IMG/VR virus record: IMGVR_UViG_2541047953_000001
Span: 1 to 11,099 of that record
DNA from: a virus
Taxonomy: Duplodnaviria > Heunggongvirae > Uroviricota > Caudoviricetes
Length of the DNA: 11,099 nt
Strand: one strand, 5' to 3'
A program made the position numbers and the translations under genes. Each line of letters starts with the position of its first letter. Position 1 is the stretch's first letter. Positions 6,462 through 9,431 of this stretch are shown here, piece after piece. Under the pieces are notes generated by a model. It worked only from the letters and a program-made list of their open reading frames with translations. It had not been told where the DNA came from and did no database searches.

Positions 6462-7112
6462 ATGGAAGTCAACAAAAAGCAGCTGGCTGACATTTTCGGT
6501 GCGAGTATCCGTACCATTCAGAACTGGCAGGAACAGGGAATGCCCGTTCTGCGAGGCGGTGGCAAGGGTAATGAGGTGCTTTATGACTCTGCCGCCGTTA
6601 TAAAATGGTATGCCGAAAGGGATGCTGAAATTGAGAACGAAAAGCTGCGCCGGGAGGTTGAAGAACTGCGCCAGGCCAGCGAGGCAGATCTCCAGCCAGG
6701 GACTATTGAGTACGAACGCCATCGACTTACGCGTGCGCAGGCCGACGCACAGGAACTGAAGAATGCCAGAGACTCAGCTGAAGTGGTGGAAACCGCATTC
6801 TGTACTTTCGTGCTGTCGCGGATCGCAGGTGAAATTGCCAGTATTCTCGACGGGATCCCCCTGTCGGTGCAGCGGCGTTTTCCGGAACTGGAAAACCGAC
6901 ATGTTGATTTCCTGAAACGGGATATCATCAAAGCCATGAACAAAGCAGCCGCGCTGGATGAACTGATACCCGGACCATCACGTCTGCAAACATCGACCGT
7001 CTGCGCTTTACCTTCGGTGTGCAGGCACTGGTGGAAACCACCTCAAAGGGGGACCGGAATCCGTCGGAAGTCCGCCTGCTGGTTCAGATACAGCGTAACG
7101 GTGGCTGGGTGA
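6462..7112 (+). pseudogene. nu1: Terminase small subunit Nu1, C-terminally truncated and fused out of frame to J-derived sequence
   Basis: The first ~171 codons match lambda Nu1 (MEVNKKQLADIFGASIRTIQNWQEQGMPVLRGGGKGNEV...KAMNKAAALDELIPG). After about position 6970-6975 the reading frame continues into unrelated sequence (PSRLQTSTVCALPSV...) until a TGA at 7110-7112. The terminal residues of lambda Nu1 (...LLSEYIEQSG) are missing. Confidence 0.8.
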
Positions 7113-7482
7113 CGGAAAAAGACATCACCATTAAAGGCAAAACCACCTCGCAGTATCTGGCCTCGGTGGTGGTGGATAACCTGCCGCCGCGCCCGTTCAA
7201 CATCCGGATGCGCAGGATGACGCCGGACAGCACCACAGACCAGCTGCAGAACAAAACGCTCTGGTCGTCATACACCGAAATCATCGATGTGAAACAGTGC
7301 TACCCGAACACGGCACTGGTCGGCGTGCAGGTGGACTCGGAGCAGTTCGGCAGCCAGCAGGTGAGCCGTAATTATCATCTTCGCGGGCGCATTCTGCAGG
7401 TGCCGTCGAACTATAACCCGCAGACGCGGCAATACAGCGGTATCTGGGACGGAACGTTTAAGCCGGCATACAGCAACAACCC
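6971..7482 (+). pseudogene. J: Internal fragment of tail tip/host-specificity protein J (about 170 codons), with no start and no native stop
   Basis: A different frame from nu1 encodes ...[168 protein letters not shown], which I recognise as an internal segment of lambda J. Similarity ends abruptly at about 7480 (window PCD-stop versus lambda MAWCLWD...). Confidence 0.75.
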
Positions 7483-7484
7483 AT

Positions 7485-9431
7485 GCGACTGATGCTGCAG
7501 ACTCAGCACGCGCAGCCAGCACGTCAGCCGGACAGGCCGCGACGTCGGCTCAGGAGGCTTTTTCCAGCGCAGGAACGGCATCAGCAAAAGCCTCTGAGGC
7601 ATCAAAAAGTGCTGCCGCTGCAGAGTCCTCAAAAAGCGCGGCGGCTACCAGTGCCGATGCGGCGAAAACGTCAGAAACGAATGCGGCAGCGTCACAACAA
7701 TCAGCAGCCACTTCTGCATCCACCGCGACCACGAAAGCGTCAGAAGCTGCCTCCTCAGCCCGGGATGCGTCGGCCTCAAAAGAGGCGGCAAAATCATCAG
7801 AAACGAACGCATCATCAAGCGCCAGTAGTGCCGCTTCCTCGGCAACGGCGGCAGGAAATTCCGCGAAGGCGGCAAAGACGTCTGAGACAAACGCTAAGTC
7901 CTCTGAAACGGCAGCGGAACAGAGTGCCTCAGCTGCGGCAGGCTCAAAAACAGCGGCTGCATCATCTGCCAGTGCCGCGTCAACAAGTGCCGGGCAGGCC
8001 TCAGCCAGTGCCACCGCCGCCGGAAAATCGGCAGAAAGTGCTGCATCGTCCGCTTCAACAGCCACAACGAAGGCTGGCGAAGCCGCTGTACAGGCCAGCA
8101 CAGCAGCGAGGTCTGCTTCCGCAGCGAAGACATCCGAGACGAACGCGAAAGCGTCGGAAACCAGCGCAGAATCCTCAAAAACGGCTGCCGCATCGTCCGC
8201 CAGTTCGGCGGCGTCATCGGCATCATCTGCGTCTGCTTCAAAAGATGAGGCGACCAGACAAGCGTCCGCAGCGAAGGGCAGCGCCACGACAGCATCCACG
8301 AAGGCGACAGAGGCAGCTGGCAGTGCGACGGCGGCAGCACAGAGCAAAAGTACGGCGGAATCCGCGGCAACGCGCGCCGAGACAGCGGCAAAACGGGCAG
8401 AGGATATTGCATCCGCCGTGGCGCTTGAGGATGCGAGCACGACGAAAAAGGGGATAGTACAGCTCAGCAGTGCGACCAACAGCACTTCCGAGTCACAGGC
8501 GGCAACGCCAAAAGCCGTTAAGGCCGCGTATGACCTGGCTAACGGGAAATACACCGCACAGGATGCAACGACAGCACAGAAAGGGATAATCCAGCTAAGC
8601 AGCGCGACCAACAGCACATCTGAAACGCTTGCCGCGACACCAAAGGCAGTAAAAACAGCCTATGACAATGCTGAGAAACGTCTGCAGAAAGATCAGAACG
8701 GTGCGGATATCCCTGGCAAAGACACCTTTACGAAAAATATTGGTGCCTGCCGTGCCTTCGGTGGGTCAGTAAGCACAACAACAGGAAACTGGACGACTGC
8801 ACAGTTTATCGAGTGGCTGGATTCTCAGGGAGCATTTAACCATCCCTACTGGATGTGCAAGGGTTCCTGGTCTTATGGCAATAATAAAATCATTACTGAT
8901 ACTGACTGCGGTAATATTCATCTCGCCGGAGCTGTCATTGAAGTAATGGGGATAAAGTCAGCGATGACGATCCGCATTACCACACCGACCACCTCCACTG
9001 GTGGTGGAACAACTAACGCCCAGTTTACCTATATTAATCACGGAACAGATTATTCACCTGGCTGGCGAAGGGACTATAACTCCAGAAATAAGCCAACGGC
9101 ATCAGAGATCGGGGCGTTACCGTCAGGTGGAACAGCAGTATCATCAGTTAATCTGGCTTCAAAAGGTCGGGTACAACAGGAGCCGAATGGCTGGAAGACC
9201 GTCACCACACAGTTCTACATCCAGGAATTCAGTGAGTATATTGCGCCACTGCAGGATGCTGTAGATCTGGAAATCGCAACGGAGGAAGAAAGATCGTTGC
9301 TGGAGGCATGGAATAAATATCGGGTATTGTTGAATCGAGTTGATACATCAGTAGCTCTGGGTATGAAGCTGTTTGTAACTCATGTTACAGTAACAGTCAT
9401 TACTATCTCGAAGGTGCAAAATGTATATTGA
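7485..9431 (+). pseudogene. Side tail fibre (Stf-like) remnant lacking its 5' end and start codon: Ala/Ser/Thr-rich shaft, two tail-fibre repeat units, a distal domain, ending in a Tfa-like C-terminal motif
   Basis: A third frame, open from about 7365, encodes [25 protein letters not shown]...KTSETNA...[35 protein letters not shown]..., which parallels the lambda Stf shaft. By my manual translation no ATG, GTG or TTG occurs in this frame before the GTG at 8418, where the track ORF starts. The 3' end carries [37 protein letters not shown], the conserved C-terminal signature of tail fibre assembly (Tfa) proteins. Beyond about 9352 the sequence becomes AT-rich and the frame ends at 9429-9431. 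Confidence 0.6.
8448..8666 (+). repeat. Tandem duplication of a ~29-codon tail-fibre repeat unit (KGI[VI][22 protein letters not shown]), period 132 bp
   Basis: Copy 1 at 8448-8534 and copy 2 at 8580-8666 are nearly identical at protein level and highly similar at DNA level. This is a coding repeat within the fibre ORF. Confidence 0.6.

Follow-up and report, generated by a model that had tools for sequence, protein, structure and literature searches.

How does a lambdoid prophage come to carry part of nu1, part of J and part of a side-tail-fibre gene (stf) directly joined to one another? The question is raised by positions 6462-9431 of an 11,099-nt stretch of DNA from a Caudoviricetes record (IMG/VR IMGVR_UViG_2541047953_000001, positions 1 to 11,099), hereafter called the window; coordinates are window positions unless lambda or a strain is named. 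An earlier note had described the interval as three lambda-like segments joined, with frame breaks, by serial deletions, leaving a prophage unable to make particles on its own. We mapped the segments by blastn of the window against lambda (NC_001416), the DLP12 prophage of K-12 and closer Escherichia coli prophages, and domains were called with Pfam on the open reading frames (ORFs) of the window. Our conclusion, to which we give a probability of about 0.9, is that we are dealing with what is left of the late region of a DLP12-type prophage at argU, reduced by short-homology (i.e. illegitimate), presumably RecA-independent deletions. It is a case of ordinary prophage decay, not a new system: the deletion allele was previously undescribed but the process is well known.

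As judged from its sequence, the locus is a DLP12-type cryptic lambdoid prophage remnant at the argU site of E. coli. A lookup of the exact Nu1-fusion protein in public assemblies retrieved a 43-kb contig (L006) which bears the same structure. Its left flank contains sfm genes, fimZ and a tRNA-Arg(UCU) gene (tct anticodon, L006 3103-3179), and its right flank an alpha/beta hydrolase gene, ompT, envY, ybcH and nfrA. Both flanks are collinear with K-12, and the chromosome resumes on either side of a very small remnant, of ~9.8 kb, lying between the argU/fimZ side and the ompT side. The assignment to the argU/DLP12 site was made because fimZ and tRNA-Arg are found on the left, and ompT and envY on the right. 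Within the window, 646-1421 and 1413-6973 are 98.7% and 97.6% identical to K-12 DLP12 (blastn); the order quuD-nmpC-essD-rrrD-rzpD-bor-ybcV-ybcW-ylcI-nohD is collinear with that of K-12, and the Pfam families of the ORFs agree with it. On the 43-kb contig, the whole stretch from argU/fimZ to ompT contains no A, head or tail gene. The terminase-large-subunit, head and tail genes which separate nu1 from J in lambda are thus absent, as had been claimed, and because they are missing the prophage cannot produce particles autonomously.

Alignment with lambda and DLP12 placed the breakpoints to the nucleotide and uncovered microhomology at the joints. The three segments are collinear with the lambda late region: 6273-6973 corresponds to lambda 1-702 (97.9% identity; cos and nu1 codons 1-170/171), 6968-7480 to lambda 15805-16317 inside J (97.1%) and 7480-7960 to lambda 20077-20557 inside stf/orf-401 (86%). 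Their reading frames are 0, 2 and 0 modulo 3, which bears out the description of three lambda-like segments with frame breaks. The ~15.1 kb and ~3.8 kb which lie between them in lambda are missing; because of these losses and of the broken frames, no functional terminase, head or tail is encoded.

The first segment opens with an intact joined cos site (6261-6284, plus strand), the 12-nt cohesive end GGGCGGCGACCT occupying 6273-6284 and position 6273 being lambda base 1; the bases preceding GGGCGGCGACCT we take to be those of the lambda right end. The cos site was kept despite the loss of the terminase genes, and the terminase of a helper lambdoid phage could in principle cut there. Downstream, nu1 (nohD in K-12) runs on the plus strand from 6462 to 6970 (97.9% identity to lambda, 97.6% to K-12 DLP12) and is truncated after codon 170, the final 10 of its 181 codons being gone. 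The Phage_Nu1 domain (PF07471) spans residues 1-164 (E = 1.7e-100). What is found in place of a full-length, 181-residue Nu1 with its own C-terminus is a truncated, pseudogene-like ORF of 216 codons (6462-7112, plus strand), made of Nu1 residues 1-171 followed by 45 codons of out-of-frame J DNA and closed by a stop at 7110-7112. Nu1 is recognisable up to residue 171 (...ELIPG), P170 and G171 having been kept by chance across the joint.

Junction 1 maps to a 4-nt microhomology, TACC, at 6967-6970. In the base-by-base alignments the nu1 parent reads GATACC / GGGG and the J parent GATTACC / CGGACC, the slash marking the joint; over a longer stretch, nu1 is GAACTGATACC then GGGG, J is CCGATTACC then CGGACC, and the window reads GAACTGATACCCGGACC. 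Since nu1 starts at 6462 (0 modulo 3) and J codon 101 lies at 6968 (2 modulo 3), the joint is out of frame. The passage from Nu1 codon ~171 to an internal J fragment, with a frame shift, had been placed near 6970-6975 and is now refined to these four bases. One deletion at TACC would have brought nu1 codon 170 up against J codon 101, with the loss of ~15.1 kb (700-15807 in lambda coordinates). By the lambda gene table, the missing genes are A, W, B, C, nu3, D, E, FI, FII, Z, U, V, G, T, H, M, L, K, I and J codons 1-100, so that this one event would have taken out all of the head genes and nearly all of the tail genes.

The J segment is an internal fragment (6971-7476, plus strand) of codons 101-272, i.e. 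~172 codons or 516 nt with the microhomologies included, in agreement with the ~170 codons claimed. From 6967 to 7482 it is 100% identical to the J gene of E. coli 510016. The fragment lacks its own start codon at the joint, and the J frame is open from 6968 to a stop at 7490-7492. Only the FNIII-A_GpJ domain was detected (E = 7.8e-37); of a complete multi-domain J of ~1,130 residues, with its C-terminal receptor-binding part, codons 101-272 are all that is present. Junction 2 lies at 7477-7482, in a 6-nt microhomology, CAACCC. There, the J parent reads AACAACCC then GGCC and the stf parent GGCAACCC then ATGC (in longer form, AGCAACAACCC then GGCC and GCGGCAACCC then ATGC). The stf codons run from 7476 (0 modulo 3) against 2 modulo 3 for J, which breaks the frame; the switch and frame shift expected near 7480-7485 are thereby located precisely. 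For both joints the positions, codon numbers and frame shifts given in the earlier note prove right to within a few bases. A second deletion would have joined J codon 272 to stf codon ~142 at CAACCC, removing lom, the remainder of J and stf codons 1-~141, that is 3.76 kb in lambda coordinates or 3.83 kb in those of the prophage of strain UR21/11-869.

The third segment had been read as stf through to 9431. This holds for 7477-9173, which match stf of E. coli 2014C-3655 (L002 6001-7696) at 99.5% identity and align without gaps, at 95.5%, with stf of strain F3_13_1_3 (L001), which is intact at 1,024 codons. It does not hold for the final 258 bases (9174-9431), which belong to a remnant of the tfaX type. 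The stf fragment proper (7483-9171, plus strand) comprises codons ~142-707 of 1,024 in F3_13_1_3 numbering, from the middle of the gene: the frame is open, and the content is an Ala/Ser-rich shaft with two Phage_fiber_2 repeats in Pfam. A complete Stf is therefore not what is encoded: the fragment has neither the N-terminal domain nor the distal receptor-binding end. Two junctions had been counted in the interval, but the alignment with L002 reveals a third, a 2-nt overlap (TA) at 9172-9173 where stf codon ~707 is joined in frame to codon 16 of the tfaX-type remnant. Beyond it, 9172-11099 correspond to L002 10057-11984. Relative to the L002 arrangement junction 3 removes 2,362 bp, namely the stf 3' end, tfa and a ybcY-type methyltransferase gene; here also a deletion, from stf codon ~707 into the tfaX remnant at TA, would account for the structure. 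The remnant (9174-9431, plus strand) is the C-terminal part of a tail-fibre assembly protein, 91% identical to K-12 tfaX and 99.5% to L002, and ends the fused frame (7476-9428, 651 residues), in which Pfam places Caudo_TAP at residues 582-627 (E = 3.3e-16). That L002 position 10057, at which UR21/11-869 breaks on the same base, might be a natural module boundary was considered and rejected because the Tfa-like frame continues leftward in L002 and in K-12.

The left end of the window, where the joints were placed by comparison with the more complete UR21/11-869 prophage, tells a similar story. At 58-61 (GGTA, 4 nt) the antisense 3' part of intD is joined to the 3' part of a replication-protein gene, and at 646-648 (TAC, 3 nt) the first ~33 codons of P are joined to the 3' part of ylcG, a joint which removes the nin region including ybcN, ninE, ybcO and rusA. 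The integrase 5' part and the entire early/immunity region are absent. Two left-end deletions would explain the loss of the integrase 5' part, of the immunity region and of most of the replication and nin regions. The two ORFs found there, of 183 (1-552) and 56 (549-719) amino acids, are evidently deletion chimeras since the joints at 58-61 and 646-648 fall within this region; the absence of any Pfam match for either fits this view.

Microhomology is therefore found at all five junctions of the window: TACC (4 nt), CAACCC (6 nt), TA (2 nt), GGTA (4 nt) and TAC (3 nt). The mean is 3.8 nt; for simulated random joints the probability of at least 4 nt is 0.016 and that of at least 6 nt is 0.0013. 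The joints are abrupt, passing from ~97-100% identity with one parent to ~97-100% with the other within an overlap of 2-6 nt. Filler DNA, ends of insertion sequences and att-like repeats were sought and found at none of the five joints, where each base could be traced to a parent. These joints thus combine non-homologous breakpoints, a few common bases and the lack of a mobile or site-specific signature, the anatomy of illegitimate deletions. That prophages erode through short-homology deletions while lysis, porin and bor-type genes survive is amply documented. The pathway would be replication slippage or microhomology-mediated end joining, as we infer from the anatomy of the junctions and from what is generally known of deletions in E. 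coli.

Comparison with K-12 DLP12 shows a close relative which decayed differently. The two elements resemble each other in location (argU/fimZ on the left, ompT/envY on the right), in gene order from ylcG to nohD with 97.6-98.7% identity over ~6.3 kb, in having the same tfaX remnant (91%) and in having lost the morphogenetic genes through internal deletion. In K-12, however, the joint runs from A (lambda 1018) to tfa (lambda 22119), giving nohD-aaaD'-'tfaD without any J or stf DNA; K-12 keeps the full nohD and the first ~100 codons of A, whereas in the window nu1 ends at codon 170 and pieces of J and stf remain. The K-12 joint is not found in the window, where identity with K-12 ends at 6973. 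The window allele is thus, on alignment, to be regarded as a sister of the K-12 allele, neither being derivable from the other. The window also lacks the int 5' part, early region, tfaD and ybcY which K-12 DLP12 has, and carries a hydrolase gene in place of K-12 appY; its nmpC porin gene is intact, whereas that of K-12 DLP12 is split by IS5.

Other decayed prophages display comparable deletions, from in or near nu1 to tail genes and with short overlaps. On the bio/att-lambda side, F3_13_1_3 carries one joint from nu1 (lambda 699) to J (lambda 16486) and a further one from J (lambda 17936) to lom, and in LZHX12 nu1 (lambda 647) passes into J (lambda 15871). At the argU site, UR21/11-869 has nu1'-'C, E'-'T and stf'-'tfaX joints and a partial L. 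Unlike the window, all three keep lom and a complete or longer stf. F3_13_1_3 and LZHX12 were considered as carriers of junction 1 and rejected, mapping on lambda having given other breakpoints (699/16486 and 647/15871). The joints lie at L001 6968-6971 and 8418-8421, L005 7915-7919 and L012 (UR21/11-869) 11541-12866, and the J breakpoints of L001 (lambda 16486) and L005 (lambda 16491) are 5 nt apart. That breakpoints seem to cluster towards the 3' end of nu1 cannot be interpreted, as our queries recover only genomes with that part of nu1 near J or stf. Differing deletions across strains would be the pattern expected of repeated independent decay, and support such a view.

UR21/11-869 is informative as to the order of events. 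It shares with the window the right breakpoint of junction 3, the 9 nt to the left of it (GGTCGGGTA) and an A-for-G single-nucleotide polymorphism (SNP) just after the joint; among the stf alleles examined, GGTCGGGTA occurs once, at the position of the window's breakpoint. The two thus appear to have junction 3 by shared descent. Because UR21/11-869 has this junction while retaining a complete J, lom and the stf 5' end, junction 3 would be a separate and probably older event. An extra copy of a fibre-repeat unit and a further joint directly left of GGTCGGGTA were seen in UR21/11-869 (L010 8866-9000); the suggestion is that its stf underwent a later internal deletion or recombination.

Several points weigh against a history of successive RecA-independent deletions. 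RecA independence and the enzymology of the joints are not properties that a nucleotide sequence would reveal. The case for shared descent of junction 3 rests on 9-10 nt to the left of the joint, and the stf and J of UR21/11-869 are less similar to those of the window (94.6% and 96.7%) than is its right flank (99.8%), which implies that the locus has been reshuffled by recombination and makes the order of events insecure. In the collections searched, no intermediate with junction 1 alone or junction 2 alone was found; junctions 1 and 2 are for this reason not demonstrated as separate, and the 'serial' character proposed in the earlier note is borne out in part, by the apparently separate origin of junction 3, a joint absent from that note. 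Finally, the stf'-'tfaX frame is open for 652 codons, which could suggest retention.

It follows that junctions 1 and 2 may have arisen in one complex event, a double template switch of the microhomology-mediated kind, in which a replication fork or a broken end would have passed from nu1 to J, copied ~510 nt there, and gone on to stf. Microhomology is present at either joint (4 and 6 nt), the segments follow one another collinearly in a single orientation, the J piece is short (516 nt), and one-joint intermediates are absent from 5,426 complete genomes, the GTDB representatives, the JGI metagenome contigs and the five contigs with the fusion ORF. Missing intermediates are, however, weak evidence for a lineage seen in five contigs only. 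The sister strains at this locus each have several separate internal deletions, junction 3 apparently occurs on its own in UR21/11-869, and stepwise loss is the established pattern here. We regard the single event as a doubtful, though not negligible, alternative to stepwise deletion.

It is improbable that the fragments were kept because they are useful, be it as a co-opted stf'-'tfaX chimera or Nu1', or as a recombination reservoir for incoming lambdoid phages. The intact cos site and the 652-codon frame would fit such a role, as would the persistence of the structure while 11-17 SNPs accumulated over 11 kb. However, the same DNA is just as open in other frames, a start codon first appears in the stf frame at 8418, well away from the joint, a reservoir role would be a by-product requiring no host selection, and the lineage is rare, with five contigs in the whole collection. 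Openness as a sign of selection was rejected: the +1 frame (324 amino acids) and the minus strand (355 amino acids) are also open, and since other frames of this Ala/Ser-rich DNA are open too, that of stf'-'tfaX is uninformative. The two ORFs concerned overlie the stf shaft, the antisense one at 7550-8617 (minus strand) and the +1 one at 7483-8457 (plus strand); gene callers annotate a 245-amino-acid antisense protein in the shaft, and lambda orf206b sits in the homologous place. Both ORFs are most likely compositional artefacts.

In favour of a reservoir, recombination between lambda and the DLP12 of K-12 is frequent in the region of cos, nu1 and A, and the nu1 of DLP12 is functional in lambda (PMC3945230). 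As the remnant retains an intact cos and patches of ~0.5-1.7 kb of homology to lambdoid late genes, it could plausibly donate sequence to incoming phages, without host selection. That the intact cos, the DNA-binding Nu1 stub, the J patch and the stf-shaft patch with its in-frame Tfa C-terminus are actively maintained, as a landing pad for segment swaps or because a truncated fibre or Nu1 interferes with phages, is very improbable; in the former case, superinfecting lambdoid phages could swap packaging or tail-fibre segments at the remnant. On the preferred reading of illegitimate deletion, we infer that the fragments are non-functional leftovers, as none of our observations points to an activity of theirs.

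The transitions could also be thought of as lambdoid mosaic boundaries, created by homologous exchange of modules between complete but divergent genes and without any gene loss. Lambdoid phages are indeed highly mosaic, and the J, stf and flanks of the window have their best matches in different strains. The breakpoints, however, are internal to genes and disrupt the frame, the codons kept are 1-170 of 181 for nu1, 101-272 of ~1,132 for J and ~142-707 of 1,024 for stf, and the parents are identical at the joints over 2-6 nt only, without flanking homology. Module exchange is in our view scarcely tenable. The J and stf segments proved to be fragments and not complete divergent genes, A, head and tail genes are lacking, the joints are abrupt and the Pfam domain sets partial; the view of the earlier note, that these are illegitimate deletions inside coding sequence and not modular exchange at gene boundaries, is thereby supported.

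Lambdoid J and stf are multi-copy in E. coli (median of 4-6 matching places per genome) and short-read assemblers can mis-join such repeats, but an assembly or scaffolding artefact arising from lambdoid repeats common to several prophages of one genome can be dismissed, since all three junctions recur in assemblies made independently from four samples (two isolates from NCBI, a metagenome from ENA and a Logan run) which align with the window at 99.8-100% identity, without gaps and with 0-17 SNPs (segment matches, E = 0), and have unique chromosomal DNA on either side. The same agreement between independent assemblies demonstrates that the three joints are inherited vertically in a small lineage. 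In the whole gene-position index the exact Nu1-fusion protein is encoded on five contigs only, the fifth being longer than 1 Mb; besides this last one, the carriers are GCA_030007545.1, GCA_005395425.1, ERR4791073 and the ENA sample ERZ28627623. Neither junction 1 nor junction 2 occurred in any of 5,426 complete E. coli genomes, and no complete E. coli genome covered at least 80% of window 6000-9900 or 8990-9400. Eight genomes covered at least 80% of 6880-7570 but were rejected as carriers of the same allele: their matches are in two pieces, with different joints, the 601 bp of query being spread over 721 or 1,089 bp in the genomes. Exact k-mers of junctions 2 and 3 had no match in the GTDB representative genomes, nor had those of junctions 1 and 2 in the JGI metagenome contigs.

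The rest of the window holds the genes that came through the decay, as identified from the ORF list and Pfam. The Q antiterminator gene (767-1165) is followed by an intact nmpC-type porin gene of 365 amino acids (1355-2452, minus strand), by the lysis cassette of holin, lysozyme and Rz (3026-4196), by bor (4228-4521, minus strand) and by a ybcV-type gene of the DUF1398 family (minus strand), then by ybcW, ylcI and the Nu1-starting ORF at 6462. Survivors are thus Q, the nmpC porin, the lysis cassette, bor, ybcV, ybcW, ylcI and cos, plus inert gene fragments. A gene for a 494-amino-acid alpha/beta hydrolase (9615-11099, minus strand; L006 12895-14774) lies between the tfaX remnant and ompT, at the position of appY in K-12, an arrangement common to many E. 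coli strains.

Grounded prophages, DLP12 being among the examples, degenerate by deletion (PMC6379469), and the allele described here is a case of it with consequences for annotation: the called proteins of 216 ('Nu1'), 127 ('J'), 245 (antisense) and 337 ('tail fibre') amino acids are chimeras or compositional artefacts, and the chimeric and artefactual ORFs of this interval deserve a pseudogene flag. The k-mers of the junctions could serve as lineage markers. More generally, the remnant offers a nucleotide-resolved example of how the argU/DLP12 locus decays by different paths in different E. coli lineages.

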